In this document: positions 1 to 32,995 of the stretch, piece by piece
Position numbering within the stretch: position 1 is the stretch's first letter
Layout: every line of letters starts with the position of its first letter
Assembly (NCBI GenBank): GCA_964388185.1
Contig: CAYLYJ010000001.1
Span: 25,873-89,872, forward strand
Direction of reading: 5' to 3'
DNA: 64,000 nt
Origin: an uncultured Coriobacteriaceae bacterium
GTDB taxonomy: Bacteria; Actinomycetota; Coriobacteriia; Coriobacteriales; QAMH01
Notes under the pieces: model-generated
Database searches by the model: none
What the model was told of the DNA's origin: nothing
What the model saw: the letters and a program-made list of their open reading frames with translations, nothing else
Translations under genes and position numbers: made by a program

Positions 1-3000
1 TCCATAACTGGAACATGAATGCCGGCACGAGCTATACCAACATGTTCCTCAATGACCTCAAGCTGACGCGAATCGATCTTGGCCCCCAGACCTCGTTTGG
101 CCATGACGCCGTCATCCAGTCAAGCACCTGGGGCAATACCGAGGGTTATGCGGCCAATGCCTCCCAGACCTGGACCATTACCCCGACTGGCAATGGCCCC
201 GTGACCATCACCATCGCTCCTGGCTCCGCCACCGAGTCTGCCTCCTACGACTACATCCAGTTCTGGAAGAACGTGACGAGCGCCAATCCCAGCGCCACGG
301 GCAGTGCCTCGGGTAAGCTCGGCGGTGCCAACATCGCTGGCAAGACCTATACCTATAGCGGTGTCTCGAGCCTCGTGGTGAGCTTCCGCTCCGACGGCTC
401 GGTGCAGAAAGCCGGCTTCAAGCTTTATATCACCGGCGGCAAGGTCACGGCATCCACGAACGGTGGCGTCTACGCTAATGTGGGCAACGATCTCGGAGTC
501 TTTGGCCCGCAGTATCCGCTGTGCGACGAGGGCAAGGGCGCCTGGCTCGAGTACCATCGCAACCCGGTCGAGGAAGATCCCGATACCTACGACACGATCC
601 ATCGCGATTATGGCGATTGGTTCGGTGCTCGACTTGCTCTTCTTGAGCACCACAAGACCACCAAGGGTCGCTACACGTACGTTTGGGATAAGGACTTCAT
701 GGGTGGCCGTCTGGCTGGCAACGACCACGTGTGGTGGTACTACACCGAGGAAGGCCATACGCGCCCCGAGGGCTACGTCGTCAAGCCGAACTCGCTCGTG
801 ATCGGTGCTGACGAGGGCTATCCGCCCGAAGACCTGACCGTCGACCTGGATCGCGCCACGACCAAGTTGCCGTGGGAGAAGATTGTGCCGGCTGGCGTCG
901 TCAAGCACGTGGCCACCATCGGCGGCTGGCGCGCGATGACGCTCAACCAGTGGTTCGCGGGCAATCACGACTTCCTGGCCGACGGCCTGCTCGACAAGGC
1001 CAATTGGGGCAATTCGGGCTTCAACTACATCAGCATTTCCAACCCCGCCAGCAACGCCGTTGATTTCAACTTCTACGACAACAATGGCGATGGCGCTGCC
1101 TGGCTCAACATTGGCAATCTGCGCGCTGGTGAGACGTATTACCTGCACATGACCTATTACTGGGATGCTTCCAGCATGAACCAGTGGAACTACCAGAACA
1201 ATCGTGGTTCCAACAGCAACGTGAATTTCCGCATTGCGATGGGTAGTTGGACTAACCAATGCCTGGGCCAGGCGCTGTACACGAACCGCACGAGCGGCAA
1301 TGGCGGCCTTACCAACTGGTACAAGCTCACCCCGACGGTGACCGGCACCTACTACCTTGGCTTCACGCTGCCGGGCAACGTCAACTTCAGCTGGAGCTCC
1401 ACGCTGCACCTCAGGGACCTCGAACTCGTCTACACTGGTAATACGAACAGCCCCAACCTCGTGTCCAATGGCAACGAGTACTTCAGCTACGAGAGCTTCA
1501 GCACTAAGCTCAACACGCGCTACACGACGAGCGACGGCAGGAACTACACCTCGCTTTCCTCCGTGCAGGACTATGTGGCCAAGCATCCAGGTGTTACCTA
1601 CACGGACACCTCGTACTACACGTATCCGCGCTCCACGAGCTCGAGCTACGTGACGGCCTACAATCGTCCGCCGGGATTCTTCGAGAACCTCGAGACCTTC
1701 GACGGCTCGGGCATCTACATGGACGACTGCCGCAGCGTGAACAAGATCTTCGAGGATTGCTCGAAGCTCACGGAGATCAACATCCGTGGTTGGTCCATCG
1801 ACGATGACGTGACCACCAAGGGTGCCTTTGACGGCGTCAATAAGCTCCAGCGCATCATCACGGACAACGGCACCTCGCTCACCGTCAAGAACGACGGCTT
1901 CATCAAGCAAATCCCGACGCACAATAACGGCGCGTGGATCGCCACGGAGGTTACGACCGACGATGACAACCCGAAGTACGACAGCGGCAAGAACCGCGTC
2001 TACGAGGGCATGCCCGTCAAGACCGTGACGCCGACCACCTCCACGAAGCGCAGTCTCGAGACGCTGTACGCCTACACCAATGGCGGCACCGACCACGGCA
2101 TCGTCACCTGGGAGTGGAAGTACGGCACGATCGTGAGCTTCGACGCCGTGCACCCGGCTGCCGCCGGCGAGATCCCCGAGGTCTTCCTCGAGGGTGGTCA
2201 GACCATCACCTTCGTCGAGAAGGATGACAAGAGCAAGTGGGTCGTATTCCCGAGTGGCGAGGAGTACCCGGTCTTCACCATGGACGGCTACGTGCTGCGC
2301 TACTGGAACACCGTGGCCAACCCCGCGACCGACAAACACGGCCGCCCGACGCAGGGCAAGGAATACGCCTACGGCGACAGTTACACGGCCCCCAACGTGG
2401 GCAACGACGACGCCGAGGAAGTCACCTTCTACGCGCAGTGGTACAAGGACGCCGACGTCATCGTCAAGTTCGTCATCGACGAGAAGGGCGGCGTGACCGG
2501 CGGCACGAGCGAGAGCAACGTCGGAAGCGACAAGGACATCACGACCGGTTACCTCGAGATCTCCGGCATGAAGGTGGGCGACACCTTCACGCTGTTCAAC
2601 GGCAAGGATTCCGGCCTGTCCATCTACGACCCGGCGCTGGGCTACAACGTCGACATGGACAGCTACGTGCACTTCAACCGCCCGGGCTACAACCTGATCG
2701 GCTGGAGCTTCTACGTGCGCCACGTCAACTCCGACGGCACCGTGACTGGTGGCACGTACAGCATCTACTTCAACGAGACCGACCAGACGACGCGCCTGTT
2801 CCTGCCGTTTGACGCGAGCGCCACCGATACCGTGGTCGTCGACACCTTCTACGCCCTGTGGGCGCCGAAGACCGGCTACACCGTCGAGTACATCGCCCCG
2901 GAGTCGAGCTACAAGCTGCCGAACAAGACCGGCGTCTCCTACACCGGCACCAACCTGCTTCCGTCCAACACCTCGCAGCTCGTGAACCCCGGCTACCGCC

Positions 3001-24000: not shown

Positions 24001-27000
24001 CCAAGGGCATCACCGGCGAGACCTACCAGATCGCCGACCCGAACAACGCCAGCGAGGTCAACAACGCGAGCTACAAGGCGCAGCTGCAGGCCATCGACTG
24101 GCGCGGCTACATGGCCAAGTACACGGCCACGCTGTTCAACGGTAACAAGAACGGCTTCGACGTGACCGACCCGACGCTGACCTGGGGCACGCAGCTCCCG
24201 ACCAGCGCCTTCACCATCGCCGATAGCGGCTGGACCACGACGGTCATCGGCAACATCAAGCAGATGGTGTCCGGCGACGGCTCCACCGTCATCACCATCG
24301 TCATGGAGGCCAAGCCCATCAGCCTGATCCTGGACAAGGGCACCTACGGCCAGTGGAACCGCGCTGACGGCCAGATGCCGGGCGTGTACCAGAACTACCA
24401 GGTGGACGCCGATGGCAAGCATGGCGTGCGCGAGGGCCAGGACCTGGCGCTGCCGGGTAGCGACGTGCTCATCCGCCCGGGCTACACGCTGGTGGGCTGG
24501 TACTACACCGACGCGGCCACCAACCTCAAGGGCAACGCCTCGATCGTGGAGGCCATGAACTGCGCGATGGACATGGGCACGACCGACGGCGTCATCCACT
24601 TCACGCCGCTGGGCAGCACCTTCCACATGCCGAACCACGACGTGACGCTGTACGCCGTGTGGAGCGCCAACACCGACACGAAGTACCAGGTCGTGCGCTA
24701 CATCATCACCGGTGACGGCAAGCGCGAGGTGTACGACACGATCGAGCACTACGGCGTCACCGACGAGGTCGCCAGCGCCATCGAGTACGACCCGAACAAG
24801 CAGCAGTACTGGAACATCGACAACCTGCCGATCAAGGGCTACGAGTACGTGCCCGGCGGCCAGAACGCGTACTACTTCGACGACGCGGGCACGCAGCACA
24901 CCGTGACCTCGATCGAGACCGGCATCCTCGTGGGCCATGAGGACTGGGACACCTGGGATCGCGGCACGAACATCGACGACATGGGCGTCTACGTCATCCC
25001 CGACGGCCAGCAGCTGCTGCAGCTGTTCCTGTACTACGCACCCAAGCAGTTCAACCTGACGATCGACCTGGGTGCCGGCAAGTGGGTGGACGACGCCGTG
25101 GAGACGCGCCCGAACGCCTTCCCGGCCTTCCCGAGCCAGCCGCAGGGCACGAAGGGCTACTACACCGGCACGAGCATCGAGCTGCCGATCGACGTGCGCT
25201 ACAACGGCCTCGTGAGCGTGGGCCTCGATAACCAGAACCGTCCGTACTCGCTGCAGGGCTACGCGTTCGACAACGGCTCGACCGTCATCATCACGCACGA
25301 GGACGGCACGCAGGAGGCCAGGTCGGCTGCCGACGTCATCGCGCTGGCCAGCCAGAAGAACGGCCTCGACAACTTCGTGTACCTGCAGGCCCTCATCGAC
25401 TCGCTGCTGTTCATCCCGGCCAACGACGCCGGTTCGACCTTCAGCATGTGGGCCGAGGACGTGACGCTATACGCGGTGTGGACGCTGTCGGTGCAGCCGC
25501 TGACCTTCGACCCGTCCGGCTATGCCGACATCAACGACCCGGATGACTTCCGCGACGCCCTCAAGGTGAGCGAGGAGCACACCGACAAGGACGCCCAGCC
25601 GGGTGGCGCGTGGTCGCTGCTCGAGCCCGACGGCTCCGTGTCGCTCGACCCGATCACCGGCCAGGCCAAGCCGGGCACGAGCGCGCCGGCCGAGTTCTAC
25701 GACGGCAAGCAGAACAACATCGGCGCCGCAGTCGAGCTGCCGCGCGAGGAGCTGCTCGTCCGCCTGGGCTACACGCTCGTGGGCTGGAGCGTCGACGAGT
25801 ACGCCACGGCGCCGGACGAGGGCCTGGACTACCGCAAGCTGTCGAAGAACGCCAAGGGCAACTACGTGTCGACGTGGACGATGCCGGCTGACCCGGCCAC
25901 GCTGTTCGCCGTGTGGATGGCCAACGACATCACGCTCGAGTTCGACGTCAACGGCGGCGACGACGGCAGCCAGCCCGACAAGATCTACAGCTGGACCGAC
26001 TGCTTCGTGACGATCCCCGAGCAGGAGCCGACCCGCGCTGGTTCGAAGTTCCAGGGCTGGGCGCTGGCCAGCGATAGCACCGACGTGTCCTACCAGCCGT
26101 TCGACACCTATCAGATGGTGGCGGCCTGGGACAAGACGCTCGGCGAGGCTAGCGGCACCGAGAACCCGAACGTGCTGTTCGCGCTGTGGAAGAACGAGGG
26201 CTTCACGGTCGAGTATTGGGCGACCTGCGATGATAGCCCGGATGAGGAGATCAAGGTCTTCGAGGTCACGGTGCCGTACGACACGTTCCTGTTCGACGCG
26301 ACCGTGGAGCCGGAGTTCGAGGGCTGGATGATCGAGGGTTGGTTCATTGATACGGCTTTCGGTTTGGCCATCGAGCAGGATTGGACGGCCGACCAGGTTG
26401 TCGAGGAGTATGGCTATTGCTTCCCCGATCCGTGGGATGGCGTGTCGCCCATCCAGGTGCATGCAGTGTGGACTGAGCGTGTCATCACTGTTAACTTCGA
26501 TTGGCAGGGCAATCCGAACGGTCCTGTGTCGACAGAGTTCTACTGGACAAATGGTATGCCTGGATTGACCTCTATCGCCATGAAGGGTTCCGAGTTCTAC
26601 GGCTGGATGACTGACCCGCTGTATGGCCGTTACACCGACGGCCGCTTCAGCCCCGACGAGGATCCCGATCATGAAATGACGCTTGGCGAGATTGTCAAGT
26701 CCATGCTCGAGGACCAGGTTGACCAGTTCTACCTCGAGAACATTACCAAGATCAGCGAGGTCAAGGAGATTACTCTGTACGCCATGTTCAACCCGATGGA
26801 TTACACAATCCATTACGAAACAGGATACGACCTCGAATTGGACGATGTGCATACGCCGTTCGATCTCTCCCAGGTTTACAGTCGTATGCCTGGTAATCGC
26901 GATGGATACGTGTTTGACGGTTGGTATACCGCCGAGGGCGTGCGCATCGATGAATCACAGCAGTATGCAAGCTTGGTTGCCAATGACACTGTTATGGAAA

Positions 27001-27035
27001 CTACCGTGTACGCGCACTGGACTCCGGTCTCGTAA
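1..27035 (+). CDS. Giant secreted/cell-surface repeat protein, 5'-partial (more than 9,000 codons inside the window)
   Basis: The frame of the 15..27035 ORF stays open back to the window edge (codons CAT AAC TGG AAC at 3-14), so the true start is upstream. Stop is TAA at 27033-27035. Translation shows many Listeria-Bacteroides/Flg_new-type repeats (Y-T-[IV]-x-F ... G-Y-x-[FL]-x-G-W ... L-Y-A-x-W) alternating with beta-sandwich (MucBP-like) modules ending L-[KR]-L-Y-Y. It also has N-terminal BspA/DUF285-like LRR motifs, a CUB-like segment (168-437) and a D/P-rich linker (21037-21315). There is no LPXTG, TM helix or other anchor at the C-terminus. Family assignment is by motif recognition only. 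Confidence 0.9.
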   Translation, partial: HNWNMNAGTSYTNMFLNDLKLTRIDLGPQTSFGHDAVIQSSTWGNTEGYAANASQTWTITPTGNGPVTITIAPGSATESASYDYIQFWKNVTSANPSATGSASGKLGGANIAGKTYTYSGVSSLVVSFRSDGSVQKAGFKLYITGGKVTASTNGGVYANVGNDLGVFGPQYPLCDEGKGAWLEYHRNPVEEDPDTYDTIHRDYGDWFGARLALLEHHKTTKGRYTYVWDKDFMGGRLAGNDHVWWYYTEEGHTRPEGYVVKPNSLVIGADEGYPPEDLTVDLDRATTKLPWEKIVPAGVVKHVATIGGWRAMTLNQWFAGNHDFLADGLLDKANWGNSGFNYISISNPASNAVDFNFYDNNGDGAAWLNIGNLRAGETYYLHMTYYWDASSMNQWNYQNNRGSNSNVNFRIAMGSWTNQCLGQALYTNRTSGNGGLTNWYKLTPTVTGTYYLGFTLPGNVNFSWSSTLHLRDLELVYTGNTNSPNLVSNGNEYFSYESFSTKLNTRYTTSDGRNYTSLSSVQDYVAKHPGVTYTDTSYYTYPRSTSSSYVTAYNRPPGFFENLETFDGSGIYMDDCRSVNKIFEDCSKLTEINIRGWSIDDDVTTKGAFDGVNKLQRIITDNGTSLTVKNDGFIKQIPTHNNGAWIATEVTTDDDNPKYDSGKNRVYEGMPVKTVTPTTSTKRSLETLYAYTNGGTDHGIVTWEWKYGTIVSFDAVHPAAAGEIPEVFLEGGQTITFVEKDDKSKWVVFPSGEEYPVFTMDGYVLRYWNTVANPATDKHGRPTQGKEYAYGDSYTAPNVGNDDAEEVTFYAQWYKDADVIVKFVIDEKGGVTGGTSESNVGSDKDITTGYLEISGMKVGDTFTLFNGKDSGLSIYDPALGYNVDMDSYVHFNRPGYNLIGWSFYVRHVNSDGTVTGGTYSIYFNETDQTTRLFLPFDASATDTVVVDTFYALWAPKTGYTVEYIAPESSYKLPNKTGVSYTGTNLLPSNTSQLVNPGYRLKGWYALDAAGNRMTFADGSDLVTNAMRFRDLALSADTGDVLRLYAEWVEGDITISFVPNNSNYGSVSKPSLDVRLTNGDAANGFTVAAPSKKGYHFLHWINDRDDATYTNYVLTGDQIKAVAYLGGKWYTTTFTAVFAPNEYTITFDPGEGGQGSMPDQNATFGVNFVVPSAGDTTGIYRDGYVFLGWMTDEPENPSDPTTPRQLAPGANIADFLAAHGATITLTALWKPQDITATWIAGKGGKVAIAGAEGNATGSITKGYTRNAPALDNVRAIADAGYRFVGWHITGNDDVLSTEALLKLVRPDTGLWPLSQSFTAVFEPIKYIIDYDWSRNPQGDQLAEGTLPSQQEKTYGVEITLGSITDPDTGEKVLEREGYIFAGWVTRDGLHLFDENGKLTIDLSTVEGEVIYLFDSWTPTTYTVTYYRGSDTAKGTMPVQTFTYDVPQTLLTNQFTRNGYRFVGWSKSLYGPILYTQDSNGVGAIVTNLGKDGDNIVLYARWEKVDSYFVTFDIDDTSKNMATIVMPPSYDPYYGVQVKNEGFVSSAQEPTFNQTQDQIDKEYYLSFWRYTITHEDGTVDTGITQDVKRIAITGVAHFSAHFTSGRKYIVVYEPGEQGIFPAVDNKTYFWDLEPSLEGHPSYVPAFGDQQAGSSYDPTFFDTAQSNPKNINKPKGTPGYEFLGWKWTDKDGNTRYSYDVTDSTGLVIIAKTPFPAEIIDQSYTFIAMWRASEVTVYLDPNGGGFILNPDGTLTNPDAAGDFSMTPGEVLATATQLTGNAVLLPGTIDADGNAHVDGLMEREGFKFLGWTDKPTGEVMWQPGENVLAHYGLVIYAVWEKYTYVIHFNSNGGTAVPDKRGVAWADRNVLAGVTEPKKDGYTFDGWYVVNPNDPKFDPTLDKISYTVPFADLARYIKLSYIDALADGVTLYAKWRENEGVIKYVPAIRNEDGTFTETAGGSVNPKEETIFIISPLAAQGSTAKAGTGFHFVGWYDAAGKLLSTSLEFAPTKGEYNTTGQYWGDEDHAIYYAVFAPNSYIIEFVVNGGIGRMEAIEVNIGEARNLPLVEGQMARVGYVFDGWCTRADGSGVHYADGAQIYNLTTINGGVITLYATWKGLDFKLTLNSNGGNPNPWDGVANPPVSYDVSGNVVYTMTAGSSMRLPDVMTFVREGYTMDGWVTTPNGDDLIEPGSIFWMPGGDVTLYAHWVPIDYIIRFQPGAPDVEGAEDMVDVTASFDRTLYLPANTMTREGYAFYHWTTKINGVTYTFEDMEGVLNLTKTAGEIITLTAVWTALPHNVTFDAGEGGTFEGIANPQEVKNGDTPDMSGFKAEREGYQLVGWTYEMKMGGNHVETGSTSDPSTVKIWGDTVFTAVWGGPRVVVYLPGNHGTFDPYITTTGFETMYTELPAGATGERYQFHGTMTEDGIPTGDEGWTFVGWIRTALDHDGNDMGEKLLIPYDEWRDDPIDVLGRIGDDEYTVVFTAKWYKPFTLTYDLLGGGEWKPDYDFGYERQGDDLPVKLTVGAGEIVNVPTAEALLRAGYMFEGWATSVENAENHIVAYPGFDEDGNLWTEFEMPENDMTLYAVWTQREYRVHYATGGGTYIGVQIFHWDDDHLIPADDPIWPGYAFNNWYTADNSDTAPADGPKGQRIYDTTKICDFLLNEEITDIILYAWFVPGNATIHYLVDGEGGTVTNPRDVDISASDGVPTGSTAVSAPGYQFMGWYDANGKLVATTEKFVPQKNADEAWLDGLTFYAKFVYQQYTIIFDSNEATEGKLPDQLVAFDEVVTLTPNADRVKRDGFKFMGWTKQQLPAFMTMDELNDALAADNLTLYEDAATVINLPDGKNLVVTLYAVWVNVGHKVHYNLDGQEDFNDDRFLGYIDDEDNDILHQTGTNVTTLAKDKTHGAHRNGYNFVGWRYLDSMGDWQNIGFGEDFVMPNHDVTLTPLWEPIRYTVVFVPGDAAIDQDTGEVTIGSTFAYDVLGQYASDVYLNYDASGKPYFAVQVSFGELFDANSRFFRPSYDFLKWNVTGTNGWGESKDGEYEAGWYQDFSNLDGSYVLFTAVWSGKKVTAKFESYDEVTGGKITGQTTQSVYTGEPVDYDAIIITPEYKKALAYWIARVTLVAEDGTTSVKELTLLPSEIAEYALEGNTVFTAYWTDANEVWYFEGTFGDFYEDHGHLAGHGSGEEGKTRFTHAVAGQPIPAYDGMANGLPRSVVVERDGKEIAYAFLGWALALMEDGSVKRDAEGHAMYQTNADGTPYFFRDKDGNIVTAADLSGYDLTGDLFLVAIWKEGDFTIEFDRNDPPQPNASELSGVDFNTGEMPSQVMAYETVLPLAPNQYNAIGYEFVGWATIAQSPYAKDWKTDNIEADILSKHGKFYENQALFGPETLATVPYGDSVQLYAVWRVRSFTVTFLVSGDNYGGVLTDKSGNVLNEGDPQLTQNVPYLGHPSSEDLRLRANEYPDLNAYYVFAGWNYEVTLPDGTKITGTFPEEGEISSITVYGNTIVRPIWERLHTLVYQPGEYGDWAEDSIYQIKLRAEKDHLVDFKTLGGPLDPTFTTPLDYGDGKGALVRSMPRSNNPDYMFDGWVGNDGSFYQTVEEVVNAYMTRGDLELTANWVRKPVIIHFDVNGGTPTPGSTATEDREAIPYEHITLPFSSTLTKAGYYLAGWMYDGKLYKVGEHSSDEFAVPRLGATLVAYWAENLAQLTFKAEATNTTGAGYIVSDYGYKTTHDPGCGADGKVGNGWCYWHGLQGWYYDDAEGHRVVKVSGFKDEWWHGNLGTVDMVINPAVQPDGSMYQKWYDTLQFRVSGITGETRGWLPEDSTLKIQDTPISITAVARTGYHFLHWVDVHGVVVCETPTFVAPAGSSGVWVDATYYAIFAEDQDVTIKYEVDDPDHAWLSRDKETIAPSTGTAQGTNVRLLPGYEVIGWAVDGDFDNLITGVGPSLNDFMPPRYGAGLNPGAQIFYDPADPTKGGHTYTAVIKPLPHIEFTVNHYFQKTDGSLSFDLKLTEQLDGPYGTRVDVRAEDVVEGGQTVRKWHIYQIDDAGNIVLDGYYDANDRIVSYLSADGFNWLYAQDISAQTATGIIGRGADALVLDLYYLLDPRNVATIGYQVINLPHTGNDPYGNGDYGSTEPTFELIAAGAAGRPNGSTVTVPDGYDFLGWFAHSLADIEGGIPPLSTDLTFVPTLPAEGLKAGDVVYYYAIFREKTDIVIDYNFAPSNGGSVSLEHDSFAPVTGHPQAVYATPKPGYRFSHWVRDDGLWIAANGAAIDGSDAWTSVPQGTSLMGSTFFPQHIDGSYMSYNGHTFTARFVIDDVNFTVVRYKVIEGHVVTINDDGTINWDVNTPTETVKLSAPANSRVKVLYDDATASYYIAGVDMAGTKLDGGLEHFFTDWLGYHYLPNYELSVESGVVVADGSLTLRLYYEADPNMLFKVERWVYNTGNPASPVTDPVLFDTTNYGGEFNNNGASTDTWRTLQLLANAGETVLAGNVGILAPAGYQYKSDPLEVLTGIVAGDGSLVLRMYFEAIENGSSFKVEHWLVDGQHNAKLADGDPQTVTGVTAGTMVTTDPSTFIPAENGHPGYTYAPEAQIWINGTLTTVKSQTYELYVRGDGTTVLKLYYVADDRKLAFDLGDGDWADTFEGDRGPRDMQTGSKTTLPTTGDLNRTGYTFVGWYITNEGTDVSGTTSIEIADRLSDPTQTTSGFFVPGSDFVMPELDIDSEFLQLIGTDYVYTLHAVWRAIPATYTVEVWKQNGDGSLERVEIEFEEADDDGLLTGVFGDTIDFNDPSNPFRAWGVGGNRQTEALGDSYKITAPLGYAFNPNLVLTGNETIRGFDKTLPTLNSVNSLVLDKVSGNVLYLFFTAIPDGVEYTVNRYIVLPDKSTTYEVDKNGNRLWRNADGEVLDGENGNVVPKEELGSWLIIVRATAGEVCRAVTTDVLDALGIPYNPTDDHVVYDGVNYFIVRNNIPGFAYAVDLSSFHNVGRVEGDSSTVISLYFDAKKQDLVFELGDGDWTLNNLNRDDGMFDGTLNRVYTMQDVNVPTKGNVTRDGYELAGWATSEAIRDAATASGDYSALIAPGARWNVPANETELDYEGFGIVRLWAVWKALPSPYIVKVYRVEGGKVIRDKEFERATSYTDPSGQRQTKPAYIDADDETLLQAPTGQTVGFYSSMVQGLHGHLQPHRAGYTLITDETYSTVYGNAKLEGEVTADGRMTLTLYYVAVPGGSKYTVEYWYWDAITGKPMKFDEAVAPTVTLNGTAGLIANANTAGINNAPGVLDTTMADAPVEDLTTNYTSLSWMWKDIEGYISAAASTWRYTGNSYDYTYATTVNGEIVNRTITITSDTSWSSTYSGMIMGDPNNMLTLRMFYIPAPREVIFSPEAGTWTAGSDTFSSSATVQYTTGQVINIPRGENITRTGYTLLGWTTDKANLDAWSANASRDLDGLKALLGDNWADSLFTSSYTVGTTTPQTLYAVWGPSATTVTVEHYRVVCDYTSNPDGSRVLTNVLRVDTDPVYTTTQNATTEGAFTREMLKYITPDQYAAFPLLKGYEYFEGFNMPFGTENYAEVVEIPSVAGDGSTTLKIYYVSVRVAYTVEFWQVSGEGVATPIKNADGTNLVIRHDGNENDEHPMGLTGAYAAADAHKDGSGNWLPVGPYVDADGNTIVPTELCDGAYYFDGQIIGYHFAPGTFTINDVSFTSDQYKMIEGDGSTVLKLYYIPDTFRLGLILNGNTYSDATWIKSYNGAGNGFVQTGSLQVSSGQQLYLPGSAAAKRPGYKLMGWYAADTYIDVKGAASIERYNKMLADADPDFFAAGSLFTCPNVDQDGEYFLWAVWVAEESNYRVQYYKVDSKGNATLEYTNANVAFKYATGDTFDLREYETDGTTVKGLKAIYALPTNATFSDNGRTYDFRGYTLDLDNIDSILAAIINGDPNNPTTFKVYYQANTDTQYKVHHVFVDGDGNTFEVLVEMRLGETDSEVQPSDIGLAYQNKKNTIRGEMKGNVLWLSYIAGEGTEFPYDFTGFMFHPNSDGTVPGTNLQTSLAAKIAGTGLTEFTLYYIADELPLNLFLGDAATSTDMDKRNWMSGSANISGNYKVGKTITLPGRDAASRNGYELVGWYSGPDFALFTNLMGANSVTAAAWLSQQQTMDPYGVNRLFIPAGGEFKMPQGVTNLYAVWRAKQITFTVDRYQITGGTQADKLTTLEFKGYAGDEVSFIDPETPVARSIVYETYTDVDGVERMRVKMVDDGTGTMIPLYESRVMTGPEDVNNWHVPGIPGYHLYRDASKGGTDTPADATVLGVDYSAKIVTTGWITEIAGMPLGDPKIVLVFVPDTDTPFKVFHHLVQGDGDIYDIKDASGELFFTIGTGKTGQFIDEATGRTFELGSWLDALGVSHADLIAGYTFGDYADQKLTGTILADGTMELHLYYLADRQQLNFELGTDATGTGANVNDPYDNGAWWRGDDPSTDIYHSAEKVTLPNATAGIRPGYELYGWYESIDGSIVDVDGNTVIPSNLTGAAANEWIKKNASLIKLAGETLGFSMPNHETTLYAVWKAVESDYKVIVYVKQGDGSLEELTVYERTGLTGNWLDYRTPGKPGEYFGDDHTKIYAWLDAITIPAGYELVLPSDYDAILGAGVALGDPFGTLNATGDDADAAGIDKTLLYLYLRAIPNGTKFFVERYTVDVNDDGALQLPKLVDRTEHNGTAGQYVRVDALFDGIGNVDPEIGWLYKALAGVITGFTYDPSFSKNLPENSTVAQLYATSATGRITGIALDAQYTAEGALILKLYYTIDSYTLTYKSLGGEITEPDGTKAENVDRTVWYKHNFTPLGADKVKKTGYDLIGWLDPETGTVYDIKADGTFDPISYIWGANKVLEAVWKAQPADVKVVHVKVNHDGEAHIAKTELFEKAKDVGLTWTVAERDNLTPHDSETFVDRLGRLNPNKITTAADVEFWRGYTHLKYGPYLTRTIVIDGVPTTITSSIDAFGYERAVITADNQTTIYVFYYAGYWNNTDPTDPTPIDPDDPNPIDPDPTDPYDPTDPDNPDPFGPDDPDPYDPDPDPDPNPPINPDPDNPTPGPTDPDNPDPDGPKPDPNDPDNPTPPTPPQIDDALKVKYVVNRYKVTGDGERVLVSSYYYKAYVGDTIFADAKYEGETVRRDGTTVWRAFDSDIEGYTYRDSLLGTADYYASHADWVTVDHGTLAGVTGNAVSLVLNLYYEADVHTLTLNLDPDTTKGSFTAPAGWTISDDGRSIWRTYRTGQTTVALPSDLVGTDGRHDNAAADPFRSGYELVGWSTNADAAGLIGEASKLKADEYRNDANRLVGDKADTYLNESTANPKADGIYSRVLYTEDGVRVLMPATDLQLWAIWSADSNTVFTVNRYKITGEGNKVLVGTDTLTGYTDSTVTVDANYITRTTGSAPVDTDTHFYLARDLAIQGYSYQREIAATITLPDGTVVNVPGAGTKSIYEGVVAPDGSLVLDLYYACYNLDDDGNPIMYKITFDPGKGTWNADPSNGTSDERTVYFFAEQNTGTLMHDIERAGYDFLGWTTEQFHENKGNQVEVSSAMGTPSREISKDGDDPINGYEGWGTTEGAYLTASLAGTSLIDGNADLFTRILYGFIMPGADVKLHAVWYARNDIEYTVEHYRVDGNGNVKDVITETRYGVTDDPIVAIDHVGDADTMARYDAAGQRYVRDNDFIGYDIVADGTDITYKDASGNTVTAQNVRYGTPDGSTRLVLKLYYQGRPLKLNFEAGLGTWDTIDSSVQGSLKTVYPVYTEQKFDVGADYFDLHREGYRLIGWTTLEYFEHDGKNIHVAWAKAWDSINVSMNIMPLYQQGDIFTMGLTETTLYAVWEANTYTLRLNEGTTTSKDATWTPSHRLVTDEEIHLPGSTVLERDGYELVGWFYKPTVEVEVDGVMQTVYVGTSEGKISQLAAAIAMLEAGNDPVTGGKKFTLNDANTVYVMPPSNVNLYAVWRAKGDTVYTVRYYKVNGNGELEVWLEVETKGITGETYQIADPNNASEVNNASYKAQLQAIDWRGYMAKYTATLFNGNKNGFDVTDPTLTWGTQLPTSAFTIADSGWTTTVIGNIKQMVSGDGSTVITIVMEAKPISLILDKGTYGQWNRADGQMPGVYQNYQVDADGKHGVREGQDLALPGSDVLIRPGYTLVGWYYTDAATNLKGNASIVEAMNCAMDMGTTDGVIHFTPLGSTFHMPNHDVTLYAVWSANTDTKYQVVRYIITGDGKREVYDTIEHYGVTDEVASAIEYDPNKQQYWNIDNLPIKGYEYVPGGQNAYYFDDAGTQHTVTSIETGILVGHEDWDTWDRGTNIDDMGVYVIPDGQQLLQLFLYYAPKQFNLTIDLGAGKWVDDAVETRPNAFPAFPSQPQGTKGYYTGTSIELPIDVRYNGLVSVGLDNQNRPYSLQGYAFDNGSTVIITHEDGTQEARSAADVIALASQKNGLDNFVYLQALIDSLLFIPANDAGSTFSMWAEDVTLYAVWTLSVQPLTFDPSGYADINDPDDFRDALKVSEEHTDKDAQPGGAWSLLEPDGSVSLDPITGQAKPGTSAPAEFYDGKQNNIGAAVELPREELLVRLGYTLVGWSVDEYATAPDEGLDYRKLSKNAKGNYVSTWTMPADPATLFAVWMANDITLEFDVNGGDDGSQPDKIYSWTDCFVTIPEQEPTRAGSKFQGWALASDSTDVSYQPFDTYQMVAAWDKTLGEASGTENPNVLFALWKNEGFTVEYWATCDDSPDEEIKVFEVTVPYDTFLFDATVEPEFEGWMIEGWFIDTAFGLAIEQDWTADQVVEEYGYCFPDPWDGVSPIQVHAVWTERVITVNFDWQGNPNGPVSTEFYWTNGMPGLTSIAMKGSEFYGWMTDPLYGRYTDGRFSPDEDPDHEMTLGEIVKSMLEDQVDQFYLENITKISEVKEITLYAMFNPMDYTIHYETGYDLELDDVHTPFDLSQVYSRMPGNRDGYVFDGWYTAEGVRIDESQQYASLVANDTVMETTVYAHWTPVS
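168..437 (+). other. CUB-like domain segment inside the giant protein
   Basis: The peptide TWTITPTGNGPVTITIAPGSATESASYDYIQFWKNV...GVSSLVVSFRSDGSVQKAGFKLYITG follows the CUB pattern (W-x-I ... Y-D-Y-[iv] ... s-L-x-V-x-F-x-S-D-x-S-x(3)-G-F-x-[la]-x-[yi]). Recognised by eye only. Confidence 0.35.
21037..21315 (+). repeat. D/P-rich low-complexity linker encoded by a (GAYCCG)n-like hexanucleotide tract
   Basis: Translation reads DPTDPTPIDPDDPNPIDPDPTDPYDPTDPDNPDPFGPDDPDPYDPDPDPDPNPPINPDPDNPTPGPTDPDNPDPDGPKPDPNDPDNPTPPTPP. The nucleotide sequence is reiterated gacccg/gatccg units, and all frames are open here (track ORFs 21017..21337 minus, 21064..21330 plus). Confidence 0.85.
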
Positions 27036-27158
27036 GCAGGGGAAATGGGCATGATGAACATCGTCGAAATATGCGCGAAAAAGATGATTGCTAACGCTGG
27101 TGAAAGCGGAATGCTATCAGGTATACTGCGCGCGCATCGAGAAGGGGAGAGGCAAGGC

Positions 27159-30100
27159 ATGAAGAAGCAGGCATCGTATAGCATGGCGCTCAGGCGCGTG
27201 TTGTGCTGCGTGCTGAGTTTTGCCCTCGTGTTCTCGCTGTCGGGCACGAGCGCATGGGCGAGTGAACTGGCGAACGAGGTCAGCGAACAGGATGTGACAG
27301 GAACGTCAGGCATCCAGTCACATTCGAAGAGCACGAATGTGACAGATGTGCCTGACCCTCTGTCACATCCTGACCCACAGTCACCTTCTGAAACATTGGA
27401 CGGGAGTGCCGAGAGCGAAGCGAACGGCACGAGCGACGCTACTGACGAAGGCGACGCTACTGAGGATGAAGATAGCGATTACGACGATAGGTACATGTTC
27501 GTCAACTCGCGCGTCGAGAAGGCGGCGGGCAACGAGCATGCGGACGTAGCCGAAGTCGGCGATACGATCGTCTACACCGTCATGGTGTGCGGACTGGGCG
27601 ACGATTTCGAGAGCGCGACCGTCAGCGACACGCTGGGCGTGTGGAACGGCGAGAAGGTCTCGAGCTACGGTTCTGATCCGGCGTACGTCGAGTTCGAGGG
27701 TCGTCACGTCGTGAGTGCGCAGGACGTGGCAAGCGAGAGCCTCGAGAACCGCGTCAGCGTCACGGGCTACGAGCCCGCATTCGCATGGGTATCGACGGCG
27801 ATCCCCGCGGCACCTGTACCTGTCGCAGACTATACGGTGGATCTTGCGGGTACGTACGCGCCCGAGCGCAACGTCATCGACTACGACCTCACCATTACCA
27901 ATACGGGCACGCTCGACCTGAGCGATCTCACGCTTTCCACGACGCTTGCCATCAACGACGCGGAGATCGATGCATCGGAGCTGCTGAGCTATCCGAGCGA
28001 TATGGGTGGTCTGCCCGAAAGCATCGATGTGGCCGTGGGTGAGACGCTGACGCTGCACCCGCGCGTGGTTATCCCGTACGATTACTTCGAGGCCGAGCAG
28101 CAGCCCGTGGTGGCGCTCGACGTGATTGTGGGCAATCCTGCTAGCATGGGCCAGACGGCAAGCGCACGCTGCGTCACGAACGCGTACGTCGAGCTCGTGC
28201 GCGACTGGCGCGTGGACGTGGCGACGCACCTGTACGACGCTCTGGGCAACGAGCTTACGGGCGAGAACCCGGCCGTGCCCGGAAACGTGGTGGAATACGA
28301 GTTCACCATCACCAACACCGGCACCGCGGACCTCGATAGCATCGAGGTCACGTCGCTGACGGATCGCCTCGTTCCCGCGAAGGCATGGGAGACGAGTTCG
28401 CTCATGCCCAGTGAGAGCGTGAGCTACGTGGGCCGCTACGTGGTGACGGATGATGATGTGGCCGTGAAGGAAGACGGCAGCATGGGCACGATATACGCCG
28501 AGGCGCGCGTGAGCGTGGACGGCGTCGAGAGCGTGCACGGCAGCGAGGCGTACAAGGTCGCCAACGAGTACGGCTACACGATCAGGTACTGGCTCGACGA
28601 AGGCTTTGACAACGACGAGGACGCCAAGCCGGAGTTGCTCGACGAGGTGAGTGGCGCCGCGGCGTTTGGCTCGGTCATCGAGCTTGCCGGCGGCATGGAG
28701 CCGGGCGAGTTCGGGTACCTGTGCCCCGAGGGCTACAAGGGCGACTACGAGGCGCTCGTGGTGGGCTCGGACGAGGCTAGCAACGTTCTGGACGTGACGT
28801 ACTCGCGTGGTGAGTACGGCTGGCGCGTGAAGTACTACGCAGACAGCGTGGCCGCAGATAACCTGATCGACGTGCGCGAGAGCACGGCGCTGCTCGGAGA
28901 GCGCGTGGAGCTCTCTGTCAACGAGCTGAACGCGGCGTTGCCGGATGGCTACATGGCGCTGGGACCCGAGGCGAGCCAGGCGATCACCGTGGGGCTCGAC
29001 GAGGCTGCAAACGAGATGACCGTCGTGTACGAGCGTGATAGCTTCGATTACACGATCAACTACTATGTGGATGATACCGAGGGCGCGCCCGTGGCAACCC
29101 TGCAGGGGAGCGCGACGTTTGGCGACACCGTGACGGTGGGCCAGGGCACGGAACAAGGCGAGCTCAACTATGCGCTGCCAGCGGGCTACGTGGCGCTCGT
29201 CGAAGCGCAGACGCTGACGGTGGGTTCGGATGAGGCCGCCAACGTGATCGATGTCGTGTATGCGACGAAGCGCAGCGACCTGAGCTTCACGATAGCGTAC
29301 TACGGCGGTGTCATGGGTGCCGATGGCACCGTGACGGCCGGCGAGCTGCTCGACGAGGTGACGGTGGCCGGCGTGGGCACGCTGGGCGAGACCGTGACCG
29401 TGGGTGCCGAGCTGCTCAACCTCGCGCTGCCCGCAGACGGGCGCTATCTGCCGATGGGCGATGACGAGAGCGCGAGCGTGCTCATCGAGGCCGACGAGTC
29501 GAAGAACCGCCTTGAGGTGGTATACGTGCCGGCTTCCTTCGAGTACACGGTGAGCTACTATGTGGACAGCGTGGGCGAGTACAACCTCGTGGGCGAGGAG
29601 AGCGGCAGCGCGCCGTTCGGCTCGCGCGTGACGCCTGATAGCGAGCTGCTGAACCGCTATCTGCCGGCGCTGGGTTACGACGCAGTCGTCGCGAACGAAG
29701 ACGACTACAGCATCCTCATCACGACGGACGTGGCAAGCAATCACCTCAACGTGGTGTACACGCGTGCGAAGTACGACTACGCGGTGAACTACTACGCTGA
29801 CGCCGTGGCGCCCGAGAACCTGCTGGGCAGCTTCACCGGATCGGCTAGCTGGGGACGTCCGCTTGTCGTGACGAACACGTCCGTGAACCGCTACGTGCCG
29901 GACGGCTATGCGAGCCTCGAGGGCACGCGCAGCATCACGATCAGCGAGGACGAGGGCCTCAACGTTATCAACATCGTGTACGGCAAGCGCACCGACCTGC
30001 CGTACACCGTCAACTACTACGTGGATAGCGTGGACGGCGAGCTGCTGGGCAGCGTGGCCGGCACCGGAACCTTCGGGGAGCCGATCCCCTACGATGCCGA

Positions 30101-31886
30101 GTACCGCCTGCCGCGTGGCTACGAGATCGACCCCGCGAGCGTGGCCGAGGTGCCGACGATCGGGACCGACGCGAGCGCGAGCGTGCTCAACGTGGTGTAC
30201 CGCCCCGCGAACTTCGAGTACGAGGTGCGCTACTACCGTGATAGCGTGAGCGACGAGGGACTGCTCGGCGTCGAGCGCGGCACGGGGCTGTATCGCAGCG
30301 AGGTGCCGTACACGGCGGGTGCGTTCTTGCCGGCGGGCTACACGGCCGAGGACGCCCAGGTCAGCGGCAACTTGCGCGTGAGCGACGTGCCGGGCAACAA
30401 CGTGCTCAACGTCGTGTACAGCAAGGACGCGCGCCTATCGTACACGGTGAACTACTACGCCGGCTCGATGGATGGCACGCCGATTGCGAGCGTGACCGGC
30501 CAGGGCACCTTCGGTGATACGATCGAGTTCGACAAGGGCGCGTTCTTGCCGGATGGCTACGCGCTGCCGGCGCAGGTGAGCGGCGCTACGACGATTGGCG
30601 CGACGCCCGAGGAGAGCGTCGTCAACGTGGTGTACCCGCTCGGCAGCTATGCCTACGAGGTGCGCTACTACCGTGATAGCGTGGACGGCGAGCTGCTGGG
30701 CACGACGCGCGGCGTGGCGACGTACCTGAGCGCGGTGCCGTACGAAATGGGCGCCTACCTGCCGGTCGGCTACTCTGCCGATGGTGCGCTCGTGGGTGCC
30801 ACGACCGTGGGTTATGACGACGCGGCCAACGTGCTCAACGTAGTGTACGCGCCCGAGCGCTACGGGTTTACGGTGAACTACTACACGGGTAGCGTGGCGA
30901 CGCGCAACCTGATCGCCAGCGAGGCCGGCGATGCGCGCGCGTACGGGTCCGTGGTGGAGCTCTCCGCCGAGGAGCTGAACGCGAAGCGTCCCGAGGGGTA
31001 TGCGGCGCTGACGGCGGGCGCGAGCGTGACGATTAGCGAGAACGAGGGCACCAACGTGGTGAACGTGGTGTTCTATCCCGACTTCGGCGAGTTCTACGCG
31101 GCGGGCGTGGATGCCGTGAGCGCGACGTACGACGGACGCGCGCACTACGTGGCGCCGCGCGCGAACGGCGTGATCGCGGGTGACGTGATCACGTATAGCT
31201 ACCGGGGCGCGGTGCAGACGCGCGTCGTGGGTTCTGGCGAGGCCGGGCTTGCAATCGACGAGATCGGCGCGGCGTTTTCGGAGGTCACGGACGGCGAGGT
31301 GCCGGTGCTCGTGACGATTACGCGTGCGGGAATCACGTCGAACGCCGTAGCCACGAGCGTGCGGATCGCGCCGGCAGTGCTCGGCGGCGATGACGAGCCG
31401 GGCGGCAACGGCGGCAACGAACAGCCGGGTACGGTGCCGGGCGGCAACGGCGGCGGCGCAGCTGGCGGCGCGGGCACGATTGGCGGCGGGCTTGCGGGCG
31501 GCGAGGTGCCGACGATCGGGCCGGCGATTGCGTCGGCGGTGCTGGGCGCGATTGCGGGCGCTGACGAGGCGGGCACGATCGGGCCCGAGCAGGCCGGCTT
31601 CGAGACGATAGCAGACGAGGAGACGCCGTTGGCGAGCTTCCCCGTGACGAATCCGAATGGACCGCATCAGATTGGATACTTGCTGTTCCTGTTGGGTACG
31701 CTGTGCGTGATCGCGATGATCGTGCTGATGGTGATTCGCCGTCGCTACGACAAGCGTATCGCGACGCTGAGCGCCGGCGAGACCGTGCTGGACCGCTACT
31801 ACGCACGGAGGCTGACGTGGGGCGTGCTTGCGACGTGCGGCGCGGCGATCGTGCTGTACGTGCTGTGGAGCGTGCTGCTGATTTGA
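27159..31886 (+). CDS. Membrane-anchored surface repeat protein (1,575 aa): signal peptide, DUF11-like and 11 MucBP-like repeats, Gly-rich tract, two C-terminal TM helices
   Basis: ATG at 27159 lies 6 nt after GGGGAGAGG (27144-27152). The N-terminus MKKQASYSMALRRVLCCVLSFALVFSLSGTSAWA/SE looks like a signal peptide; the track start at 27045 adds 38 non-signal residues. DUF11/conserved-repeat-like segments are present (PGNVVEYEFTITNTGTADLDSIEV). Eleven tandem ~75-90-aa repeats begin [YFW]-x-[IV]-x-Y-[YW] and end N-V-x-x-V-V-Y (about 28573-31075). After an MBG-like SATYDGRAHYV segment and a Gly-rich tract come the helices IGYLLFLLGTLCVIAMIVLMVI-RRRYDKR and LTWGVLATCGAAIVLYVLWSVLLI. Stop at 31884-31886. 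Confidence 0.85.
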   Translation: MKKQASYSMALRRVLCCVLSFALVFSLSGTSAWASELANEVSEQDVTGTSGIQSHSKSTNVTDVPDPLSHPDPQSPSETLDGSAESEANGTSDATDEGDATEDEDSDYDDRYMFVNSRVEKAAGNEHADVAEVGDTIVYTVMVCGLGDDFESATVSDTLGVWNGEKVSSYGSDPAYVEFEGRHVVSAQDVASESLENRVSVTGYEPAFAWVSTAIPAAPVPVADYTVDLAGTYAPERNVIDYDLTITNTGTLDLSDLTLSTTLAINDAEIDASELLSYPSDMGGLPESIDVAVGETLTLHPRVVIPYDYFEAEQQPVVALDVIVGNPASMGQTASARCVTNAYVELVRDWRVDVATHLYDALGNELTGENPAVPGNVVEYEFTITNTGTADLDSIEVTSLTDRLVPAKAWETSSLMPSESVSYVGRYVVTDDDVAVKEDGSMGTIYAEARVSVDGVESVHGSEAYKVANEYGYTIRYWLDEGFDNDEDAKPELLDEVSGAAAFGSVIELAGGMEPGEFGYLCPEGYKGDYEALVVGSDEASNVLDVTYSRGEYGWRVKYYADSVAADNLIDVRESTALLGERVELSVNELNAALPDGYMALGPEASQAITVGLDEAANEMTVVYERDSFDYTINYYVDDTEGAPVATLQGSATFGDTVTVGQGTEQGELNYALPAGYVALVEAQTLTVGSDEAANVIDVVYATKRSDLSFTIAYYGGVMGADGTVTAGELLDEVTVAGVGTLGETVTVGAELLNLALPADGRYLPMGDDESASVLIEADESKNRLEVVYVPASFEYTVSYYVDSVGEYNLVGEESGSAPFGSRVTPDSELLNRYLPALGYDAVVANEDDYSILITTDVASNHLNVVYTRAKYDYAVNYYADAVAPENLLGSFTGSASWGRPLVVTNTSVNRYVPDGYASLEGTRSITISEDEGLNVINIVYGKRTDLPYTVNYYVDSVDGELLGSVAGTGTFGEPIPYDAEYRLPRGYEIDPASVAEVPTIGTDASASVLNVVYRPANFEYEVRYYRDSVSDEGLLGVERGTGLYRSEVPYTAGAFLPAGYTAEDAQVSGNLRVSDVPGNNVLNVVYSKDARLSYTVNYYAGSMDGTPIASVTGQGTFGDTIEFDKGAFLPDGYALPAQVSGATTIGATPEESVVNVVYPLGSYAYEVRYYRDSVDGELLGTTRGVATYLSAVPYEMGAYLPVGYSADGALVGATTVGYDDAANVLNVVYAPERYGFTVNYYTGSVATRNLIASEAGDARAYGSVVELSAEELNAKRPEGYAALTAGASVTISENEGTNVVNVVFYPDFGEFYAAGVDAVSATYDGRAHYVAPRANGVIAGDVITYSYRGAVQTRVVGSGEAGLAIDEIGAAFSEVTDGEVPVLVTITRAGITSNAVATSVRIAPAVLGGDDEPGGNGGNEQPGTVPGGNGGGAAGGAGTIGGGLAGGEVPTIGPAIASAVLGAIAGADEAGTIGPEQAGFETIADEETPLASFPVTNPNGPHQIGYLLFLLGTLCVIAMIVLMVIRRRYDKRIATLSAGETVLDRYYARRLTWGVLATCGAAIVLYVLWSVLLI
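27294..27366 (+). repeat. Two degenerate REP-like sequences embedded in coding DNA of the 27159 gene
   Basis: The sequences are gtgacaggaacgtcaggcatccagtcac (27294-27321) and gtgacagatgtgcctgaccctctgtcac (27339-27366). Both keep the GTGACAG...TCAC / GTGACAG..CCTGACC.CTGTCAC framework of the island REP. They translate as DVTGTSGIQSH and NVTDVPDPLSH, compared with VTGVRPLSH for an intact REP. Confidence 0.5.
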
Positions 31887-31992: not shown

Positions 31993-32000
31993 ACTTTAAC

Positions 32001-32025
32001 GTGACAGGGGTCAGGCCCCTGTCAC
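32001..32025 (+). repeat. REP-like 25-nt palindromic hairpin element (also a plausible intrinsic terminator for the 27159 gene)
   Basis: GTGACAGGGG-TCAGG-CCCCTGTCAC read directly. It is followed immediately by GTTTTGTTTT, and it is the only copy with a clear T-tract. Confidence 0.9.
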
Positions 32026-32058
32026 GTTTTGTTTTGGGTCGCGGGGGCCGGCGGGAAT

Positions 32059-32083
32059 GTGTCAGGGGTCAGGCCCCTGTCAC
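32059..32083 (+). repeat. REP-like palindromic element (1 mismatch)
   Basis: GTGTCAGGGG-TCAGG-CCCCTGTCAC; the left arm has A>T. Confidence 0.85.
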
Positions 32084-32247
32084 ATTCGGGAGGTGCCGGT
32101 CAGGGGTGTAAAGCATGGCTGCTAAGTGGCTGGTCAGAGGGTCACGAGGCGCGGATTTTGGGTGTGTGGATGTATAGCAAATCGGGTGCTATCTCCGCAG
32201 GTCAGAGGCGTATAGCACGGCGATTTTCGAGGATGTGGGGGAGAGAT

Positions 32248-32272
32248 GTGACAGGGGCCAGGCCCCTGTCAC
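32248..32272. repeat. REP-like palindromic element (loop variant)
   Basis: GTGACAGGGG-CCAGG-CCCCTGTCAC; perfect 10-bp arms with loop CCAGG. Confidence 0.9.
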
Positions 32273-32391
32273 ATGGGGCGGCTTCGTCCGCAACCTGCTC
32301 GGGCGGAAGCCGGATTTCGCCCGGAAGAAAACCGGCGATTCCACGATTCCCGTTCGGCGAAACTGTCAGATCCGCTTGCTACGATTGCCCG

Positions 32392-32814
32392 ATGAACGGC
32401 GAGCGCGACATACGGGCCGAGAGGCGAGGACAGGCTTGCGGGAGGGTGATCATCCCGCCGGACGTGAACCTGTGGCCCCACGAGCTCAGGACCGCCGACG
32501 CGCTGGCGAGGGCGGGGCACGTGGTCGAGTTCGTGCGCAAGAACGACACGCCGCACGAAAAGACGGCGGATGCTCTTGTAGACGGCGTCCTGTGGGAGTT
32601 CAAGGCGCCGAGGTCGAGCCATCTGAGCGCCGTCGAGCGCAACCTGAAGAAGGGGCGTTGGCAATCAGAACGCATTGTATTTGACGGCAGGCGCATGAAG
32701 CGGCTGCCTGATTACGCAATTGAGCGAGAAGTTCGCACAAGAGCATATAGGATTCCGCATATCAGGAAGCTGCTTTACGTAAATAAGCAAGGGCAAATCA
32801 TTGACATAAAATGA
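32392..32814 (+). CDS. Small basic protein with a PD-(D/E)xK-like nuclease motif (CdiA-CT/toxin-domain-like), 140 aa
   Basis: ATG at 32392. The upstream 121 codons of track ORF 32029..32814 run through three REPs and are rejected. The sequence ...HELRTADALARAGHVVEFVRKNDTPHEKTADALVDGVLWEFKAP...GRWQSERIVFDG... carries a D-x(n)-E-x-K core (D..DGVLWEFK). From memory it resembles stand-alone CdiA-CT tRNase-like toxin domains. A TACGAT hexamer 6 nt before the ATG is conserved with the copy at 41180-41185, which suggests a possible leaderless mRNA. Confidence 0.55.
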   Translation: MNGERDIRAERRGQACGRVIIPPDVNLWPHELRTADALARAGHVVEFVRKNDTPHEKTADALVDGVLWEFKAPRSSHLSAVERNLKKGRWQSERIVFDGRRMKRLPDYAIEREVRTRAYRIPHIRKLLYVNKQGQIIDIK

Positions 32815-32839
32815 TTGTGCGCCTACAATTACTACCAGT

Positions 32840-32887: not shown

Positions 32888-32898
32888 ATGCGCAGAAC

Positions 32899-32942: not shown

Positions 32943-32995
32943 ATAAAGGCAGATCATTGACATTGGAAGAGGTCAGGAGATACAATAACCTCAGT

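Follow-up and report, generated by a model that had tools for sequence, protein, structure and literature searches.

A 64,000 nt stretch of contig CAYLYJ010000001.1, referred to below as the window, comes from an uncultured Coriobacteriaceae bacterium and carries on its forward strand the 3' part of a giant gene for a predicted surface protein (3–27,035), followed by a gene for a 1,575-amino acid (aa) membrane-anchored repeat protein (27,159–31,886; referred to here as gene 2). On the basis of the sequence we consider, with moderate confidence, that the two genes represent a conserved surface-fibre cassette of an uncultured Coriobacteriia bacterium, in which the giant protein would have a specificity-determining C-terminal tip. 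A sharply bounded block of ~250 aa at the C-terminus of the giant varies in nearly every strain, in contrast with near-identity over the other ~3,000 residues examined, and the data support the giant and the membrane-anchored protein as a conserved unit. The host bacterium is probably gut-associated.

The giant gene is read in frame 3 from base 3, at the edge of the window, to a TAA codon at 27,033–27,035; this gives 9,010 codons with no internal stop among the open reading frames (ORFs) of the window. GC content by codon position is 57 % (first), 43 % (second) and 93.7 % (third, GC3), and the Nei-Gojobori ratio of non-synonymous to synonymous substitution rates (dN/dS) is 0.05–0.3 in each 400-codon block when ~3,300 codons are compared with those of two other strains. 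These two measures show that the frame is genuinely coding, and the gene is under purifying selection.

Relatives were reached through contigs carrying homologues of gene 2, which gave eight further loci from the same species and one locus from another species. Two of the same-species loci were compared in full and show ~95–96 % nucleotide identity overall and 97–100 % outside variable blocks. Complete calls of the upstream gene in same-species metagenome contigs, with starts internal to the contigs, are 15,156 and 15,160 aa in length, suggesting that the full giant gene is ~45.5 kb and that the window holds approximately the last 60 % of it. In three more contigs, which begin inside the gene ~85–93 codons past its start, the giant is at least 15,074, 15,071 and 15,067 aa, and the frame is thus unbroken over at least 15,067 codons in five independent assemblies. 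The remaining contigs of relatives hold shorter pieces of the giant cut by the contig edge, and the giant tails that can be read in relatives (3,291–3,329 codons each) are free of stop codons. Set against a threshold of more than 10,000 codons for a giant gene, the window shows 9,010 codons open at its edge and the same-species contigs give 15,067–15,160 aa, with one at 10,190. The original prediction had described a gene of more than 9,000 codons, open at the 5' edge and among the largest in bacteria; this is supported, and the ~15,160 aa seen in relatives makes the gene larger than is visible in the window. We also observed that three independent assemblies break ~85–93 codons after the start of the giant; the contigs are ~50.2–50.4 kb long and contain little beyond the two genes (among the relatives' contigs L006, L008, L014 and L015).

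A frame of this length could instead be decaying or artefactual, as a pseudogene or as a frame left open by chance in repeat DNA of high GC content. One assembly does split the giant at approximately residue 4,970, and very long antisense ORFs arise here by composition alone. However, the dN/dS values hold over 3,300 codons in two strain pairs, GC3 is high in the giant frame itself, the frame is uninterrupted in the five assemblies described above and structural residues are kept even in the variable tip. This explanation is largely refuted and we consider it very improbable. The antisense ORFs of 1,000–3,900 aa opposite the giant genes (120–25,298 and 46,882–58,707, both on the reverse strand) are not genes; they are compositional shadows cast by the sense frame, the codon usage of which is extremely biased (GC3 94 %).

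The hypervariable tip (26,200–27,032) comprises the last ~250–275 aa of the giant, includes three Flg_new-type repeats and was delimited using nucleotide diversity, identity matrices and dS. Its alleles were gathered by the same look-ups of gene 2 homologues. In the strain alignment the giant is 97–100 % identical at the nucleotide level from ~17 kb to ~26.1 kb, the final ~830 nt are 59–76 % identical, and past the tip identity returns to 98 % in the intergenic region and the signal peptide of gene 2. Nucleotide diversity per 60 nt across eight strains rises from 0.01–0.04 to 0.2–0.48 at ~26,200 and falls to 0.02–0.04 at the giant's stop codon. The last ~250 aa occur as seven alleles in the eight strains, with pairwise identities of 55–71 % except for a single pair at 84 %. 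At 61–67 % identity, the allele from the other species (L003) is as distant from these as the strain alleles are among themselves, whereas the 500 aa ahead of the tip are 98–100 % identical among strains and 77–78 % identical to the L003 species.

In the last 120 codons of the giant dS exceeds 1, compared with 0.02–0.09 upstream. This does not reflect relaxed constraint, and the alleles are old or horizontally exchanged lineages. In the alignment of the tip 89 of 259 columns are invariant and these are rich in Gly, Asp and Trp, so that the tip retains its fold as the remaining positions diverge. Contigs from at least two separate samples share one identical allele, so the alleles are neither assembly noise nor chimeras.

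Hypervariation placed exactly at the 3' end of a surface-protein gene resembles that of the targets of diversity-generating retroelements (DGRs) and of the C-terminal toxin region of CdiA (CdiA-CT), and a small ORF with a CdiA_C domain lies 500 nt past gene 2. We therefore weighed whether a dedicated diversification system (a DGR or silent-cassette switching) or a polymorphic-toxin C-terminal domain makes the tip variable, and found this the least probable of the explanations considered. There is no reverse transcriptase among the ORFs of the window, and no template repeat and no second or silent copy of the tip region was found in the window or in any retrieved locus; both a DGR and silent-cassette switching were rejected on these grounds. 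The variation also extends over ~830 nt and includes indels, whereas DGR changes are adenine-specific and span ~100 nt. A polymorphic toxin of the CdiA or Rhs type was rejected because the tip consists of Flg_new repeats alone, with no toxin domain, and the next gene encodes a 1,575-aa surface protein, which is not immunity-sized. The CdiA_C ORF stands alone behind hairpins of the repetitive extragenic palindrome (REP) type, and one strain lacks it.

The giant is an acidic (pI 4.4) and almost entirely beta-rich protein made up of dozens of Flg_new repeats and at least 21 copies of an unannotated module, with a few CUB-like or leucine-rich repeat (LRR)-like inserts. Membership of the Flg_new (Listeria-Bacteroides repeat) family was judged by scores above the curated cut-offs of PF09479, PF18998 and TIGR02543. 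The Pfam match has an E-value of 1.6e-78, with 259 and 134 bits against a cut-off of 27, and TIGR02543 scores 98 bits against 20.95. Pfam recognizes Flg_new, Flg_new_2 and one CUB-like domain, and with a hidden Markov model (HMM) built iteratively from the protein's own sequence 47 Flg_new-type repeats are counted across the 9,010 aa. The CUB-like jelly-roll domain (aa 35–141; 105–425) scores 22.7 bits against a Pfam cut-off of 21.4 and is flanked by short DUF285/BspA-type LRR-like segments at aa 1–20 and ~545–650; matches in a representative library are proteins rich in CUB and DUF285. A dense array of ~21 domains of the Flg_new or InlB B-repeat type, with spacers of 25–50 aa, follows at aa 753–2944 (2,259–8,834) and was defined using Pfam, TIGR02543 and our own HMM. 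Repeat-family analysis places 21 copies of the unannotated module, each ~100–150 aa with the signature YTVxxYxVxGDG...GYxY...GDGxxVLxLYY, at aa 3986–8352 (11,958–25,058), where Flg_new repeats are interleaved with them. The sole low-complexity segment in the 9,010 aa is a Pro/Asp-rich spacer of ~100 aa (21,018–21,335).

Between aa 4652 and 7366 (nt ~13,956–22,100) the modules form a super-module with two module copies and one Flg_new repeat per unit. The start-to-start spacing of the Flg_new repeats here is 336–447 aa (1.0–1.34 kb), typically ~1.1 kb. Internal repeat copies are only 25–35 % identical at the protein level, so collapse of the repeats during assembly is unlikely. A reiterated and diverged super-module had been predicted and was found, although its period is typically ~1.1 kb rather than the 1.3 kb that had been given. 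The description of its modules as beta-sandwiches was not upheld: an AlphaFold2 model of the module built on 20 paralogues (mean predicted local distance difference test score, pLDDT, 76.6) has no significant match in the PDB, and its weak top matches are beta-grasp folds (PB1, MucBP 3LYY, staphylokinase and the InlB B-repeat, PDB 7pv9 and 7nms). A model of the whole super-module from an eight-sequence alignment (pLDDT 57.5) is confident in the Flg_new part only and was not used. The module has no match in Pfam, NCBIfam or PDB sequences.

Peptide-pattern scans of genome, metagenome and viral contigs with the first 450 aa encoded in the window gave nothing useful. Word-indexed searching of proteins with aa 1–900 of the giant gave no match, and neither did a protein search with its C-terminal 441 aa. 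An exhaustive HMMER search aimed at recovering the N-terminus retrieved only short fragments of 50–60 % identity (P0018, P0020 and P0024) and unrelated CUB or DUF285 proteins. Exact look-ups of proteins from the window, limited to 5,000 aa, likewise gave no record.

The giant had been predicted to end in a Flg_new-type repeat with no LPXTG motif, transmembrane (TM) helix or other anchor, and hydropathy, motif and Pfam scans agree on this. Its C-terminus (...TVYAHWTPVS*) lies within a Flg_new-type repeat. The maximum 19-residue Kyte-Doolittle mean over the protein is 1.3, below the value of 1.6 used as the threshold for a hydrophobic window in the LPXTG test, and there is no TM-like stretch. 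LPxTG-like strings are internal only (aa 4115 and aa 4657, the latter inside a Flg_new-type repeat), and the C-terminal sortase signature of motif, hydrophobic stretch and basic tail is absent from the giant. Pfam detects none of the wall-binding modules GW, SH3b, LysM, SLH, CWB2 or choline-binding in the whole 9,010 aa or in the last 658 aa at E≤1. Among the large surface proteins of the window, the giant alone lacks a C-terminal TM anchor.

The absence of known anchor types across 9,010 aa would fit a released exoprotein, that is, a matrix, biofilm or aggregation factor that the producing cell does not keep on its surface, with gene 2 encoding merely a neighbouring adhesin. The anchor-free Giant1-5 proteins of Apilactobacillus kunkeei occur in both cell lysate and supernatant (PMC12863079). 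However, release would explain neither the strict conservation of the gene pair nor the confinement of diversity to the last ~250 aa, and we consider it unlikely.

Gene 2 was characterized by ORF, Pfam, repeat and hydropathy analysis. It encodes a signal peptide at aa 1–34 (...SAWA/SE; nt 27,159–27,260), and the mature N-terminus is an acidic, indel-rich, low-complexity linker (27,261–27,570). Three domains of the DUF11/CLIPPER type follow, one of which passes the Pfam cut-off as DUF7507/CLIPPER_2 (aa 372–436; 28,272–28,466) with 53.3 bits against 27; the same match is precomputed for orthologues. CLIPPER_2 is a stalk domain of fibrillar adhesins (PMC12617251). Eleven repeats of 71–86 aa occupy aa 473–1315 (28,575–31,103), after which there is an MBG-like segment, a Gly-rich spacer and two C-terminal TM helices at aa ~1503–1529 (~31,665–31,745) and aa 1551–1575 (31,809–31,883).

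The signal peptide, the 11 repeats and the two C-terminal TM helices are therefore as predicted, but the description of the repeats as MucBP-like is not supported. The whole protein has no match to Pfam MucBP (PF06458 or PF17965) at E≤0.01, two of the 11 repeats touch MucBP_2 and only at E≥0.066, and profiles built from 11 and 22 gene 2 repeats find no MucBP chain among PDB sequences. Comparison by hhalign indicates that the giant's modules are unrelated to the gene 2 repeats (probability 0.7 %). The design with 11 repeats and two TM helices recurs in the orthologue P0002. Between strains the folded domains of gene 2 are 94–99 % identical and the acidic linker is the only variable part. The linker differs mainly by indels, with an 18-aa repeat unit, ENVTGDVTEASGTQS, present or absent, and at the nucleotide level these indels mimic a second hypervariable block. 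With respect to co-variation of the tip and the linker, the two regions are tightly linked and the linker changes mainly by low-complexity indels.

The ATG of gene 2 at 27,159 lies exactly 123 nt past the stop codon of the giant, at the distance that had been predicted. This gap (27,036–27,158) is 98 % conserved between strains and was examined by strain and cross-species alignment. There is a ribosome-binding site, GGGGAGAGG, ahead of the ATG and a promoter-like element, GTGAAA-16-TATACT, at 27,100–27,127. A possible in-frame extension of gene 2 by 38 codons upstream was judged non-coding, because the frame is not kept in the other species and only the promoter-like boxes stay conserved there. 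No terminator-like site was found between the giant and gene 2. Past gene 2 a terminator-like hairpin (31,998–32,028, forward strand), with a 14 bp stem and a T-run, ends the two-gene unit; it is a copy of a REP-like palindrome. The lack of a terminator in the gap together with the conserved promoter-like boxes suggests that gene 2 may be transcribed both by read-through and on its own.

Homologues of gene 2 were found in only two clusters at 90 % identity, one 93 % identical with 25 members and one 43 % identical. A giant tail is directly upstream of the gene 2 homologue in all nine retrieved contexts, with a gap of 120–123 nt. One of these contexts is from a second species, and its gene 2, despite an identity of only 43 %, retains the 11 repeats and the two TM helices.

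The original prediction regarded a division of labour, with one protein as anchor or stalk and the giant attached to it non-covalently, as conceivable but purely inferential. In the form weighed here, the gene 2 product would provide the membrane anchor or stalk, and the C-terminal repeats of the anchorless giant would bind to it non-covalently. Several of these observations speak for it: the two genes are adjacent in every retrieved context and in two species, no terminator separates them, the giant is the window's only large surface protein without a C-terminal TM anchor, and gene 2 retains its 11-repeat, two-TM design at low identity. The conserved two-gene unit and the giant's singular lack of a C-terminal TM helix thus stand. 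Docking by the C-terminus, however, is disfavoured, because the tip is hypervariable while the folded parts of gene 2 are conserved in the same strains, and variation within gene 2 is confined to an acidic, indel-rich linker of low complexity. Additionally, both partners are strongly acidic (pI ~4), Pfam scans find no cohesin or dockerin, SLH, GW, SH3b or other docking domain in either protein, and the promoter-like element in the gap, conserved across species, suggests separate transcription. Anchoring of the giant by its N-terminus is at least as likely as docking on the gene 2 product, and we regard the complete division-of-labour proposal as doubtful.

In the surface-fibre reading that we favour, the giant would be exported and is predicted to form a fibre hundreds of nanometres long. 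The tip would be the exposed, specificity-determining end of this fibre, with three Flg_new-type repeats in which the core is invariant and the remaining positions are strain-specific. Its diversity may be kept by frequency-dependent selection, for which a ligand, host immunity, phage or strain recognition are candidate agents. The giant is most likely held at the cell by its N-terminal part, upstream of the window, as suggested by the C-terminus, which is anchor-free and is the variable end; the polarity of the giant would then be the reverse of that of LPXTG adhesins. The gene 2 product is best seen as a putative separate membrane-anchored fibrillar stalk protein, which would be expressed by read-through from the first gene and/or from its own promoter-like site and may act with the giant at the surface. 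On these features the giant resembles a device for strain-specific recognition at the surface more than it does an ordinary adhesin.

Several points weigh against this reading. The first ~6,150 codons of the giant, which would encode a signal peptide or an N-terminal anchor if there is one, are upstream of the window. In WALL22-1 scaffold_214 the giant call is only 10,190 aa, representing either a split ORF or an assembly error; the split implies a frameshift or stop near residue ~4,970. The AlphaFold2 model of the giant's main module has, as described above, no significant PDB neighbour. Finally, dN/dS in the tip is 0.2–0.3 with saturated dS, a pattern that shows the alleles to be ancient or exchanged but does not establish positive selection.

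A more specific proposal is that the tip is a strain-identity determinant on a fibre of about half a micron, acting by allele-specific tip-to-tip kin recognition, matched-partner recognition or host-ligand recognition. We regard this as a long shot. If true, a gut member of the Actinomycetota would have a system for recognizing kin or strains that relies on one of the largest bacterial proteins, and this protein would be anchored N-terminally and vary at its C-terminal tip, the reverse of classical Gram-positive adhesins.

There are several known systems with which the locus can be compared. InlB of Listeria is the founding B-repeat (Flg_new) protein and is anchorless and non-covalently held on the surface; its receptor-binding LRR domain is N-terminal, it carries a single B-repeat and it is retained by C-terminal GW modules. 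The Flg_new or B-repeat is common to InlB and the giant, but GW modules were not found in the giant. In cellulosomes a scaffoldin and an anchoring scaffoldin provide a precedent for a large anchorless protein docked C-terminally on a cell-bound partner, through type II dockerin-cohesin pairing. Neither cohesin nor dockerin was found in Pfam scans of the giant or gene 2, and a docking end of the cellulosome kind is not expected to be hypervariable within a species, as the C-terminus of the giant is.

Proteins of 10,000–30,000 aa with Listeria-Bacteroides repeats have been reported from mammalian-gut Clostridia (West-Roberts et al., 2023, bioRxiv 10.1101/2023.11.21.568195). The giant described here is in the same size class, Flg_new is likewise its dominant recognizable domain, and both are seen only in metagenomes and have a presumed surface-binding role. 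It differs in occurring in Coriobacteriia, in having most of its mass in an unannotated module, in its hypervariable C-terminal tip, in the conserved downstream gene for a membrane-anchored partner and in the absence of dockerin or YG repeats. Gram-positive fibrillar adhesins with tandem stalk domains include a 7,651-aa adhesin of Mobiluncus mulieris (PMC10619420) and the CLIPPER-stalk adhesins (PMC12617251). Like these, the giant has long arrays of small beta-domains and is acidic and predicted to be extracellular, and gene 2 has a CLIPPER_2 stalk domain. These adhesins, however, carry their adhesive tip at the N-terminus and are anchored C-terminally, by LPXTG or otherwise, whereas the C-terminus of the giant is anchor-free and variable.

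The Giant1-5 proteins of A. kunkeei are clustered giants whose neighbouring genes co-diverge (PMC12863079). They are similar to the giant described here in being giant extracellular proteins with no TM helix or LPXTG motif and with strong local recombination and strain divergence. In contrast, they are helical or beta-solenoid proteins of 3–8 kaa with a conserved, positively charged SH3b-like C-terminus that has been proposed to bind the wall (PMC12863079), whereas the C-terminus here is acidic, hypervariable and of the Flg_new type. Giant Flg_new-rich gut proteins and anchor-free giants with local recombination are therefore already known. The locus described here differs from them in its taxon, in the two unannotated repeat families that form most of both proteins, in the bounded hypervariable tip and in the strictly co-conserved anchored partner.

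Giant Flg_new-rich proteins are common in gut metagenomes and functionally blank, and this locus provides a concrete, testable handle on them. If the tip is the specificity-determining end, such fibres would be devices for strain-level recognition or evasion, oriented in the opposite sense to textbook Gram-positive adhesins. In addition, domain models could be built for the two unannotated repeat families (21 and 11 copies) that the locus defines.

In the remainder of the window a 25 nt palindrome, GTGACAGGGGYCWGRCCCCTGTCAC, is present 30 times (0 expected by chance) at 32,001–45,750, 58,741–58,963 and 61,766–61,832, and all copies are intergenic. Exact copies of this REP-like palindrome are found in only a few uncultured Coriobacteriia metagenome-assembled genomes, which places the bacterium in the Coriobacteriia. 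Past gene 2, behind the REP hairpins, there is a stand-alone ORF of ~140 aa with a CdiA_C toxin-type domain (32,392–32,814, forward strand; E=2.7e-10). It is called in two related strains (L002 and L016), is absent in L004 and lies in a variable island with HipA/helix-turn-helix (HTH), NTP_transf_8 and DUF6788 genes. The region at 33,300–43,900, the gene content of which differs among the same three strains, has four paralogous DUF4143/AAA_14 ATPase genes, an IS200-type Y1 transposase, NTP_transf_8 with a DUF6788 neighbour and an HTH protein. Among RNA genes, the window gave no tRNA and a single Rfam family match, to DUF3800-XI RNA (41,390–41,438, forward strand; 43.9 bits against a gathering score of 37.8).

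A second giant ORF of 5,235 aa (45,952–61,659, forward strand) is also Flg_new-rich and has its own signal peptide. Two genes seem to be joined within it, with no stop codon at the junction. A TM helix and RRRRR are located at nt ~57,967–58,100, after which there is a tail of ~250 aa with eight GAHxV motifs and then in-frame REP palindromes at 58,741 and 58,939. At 59,137 the frame has another start with a signal-peptide-like sequence, and it closes with a C-terminal TM helix. This ORF may be a fusion, the result of a lost stop codon or a multi-pass protein.

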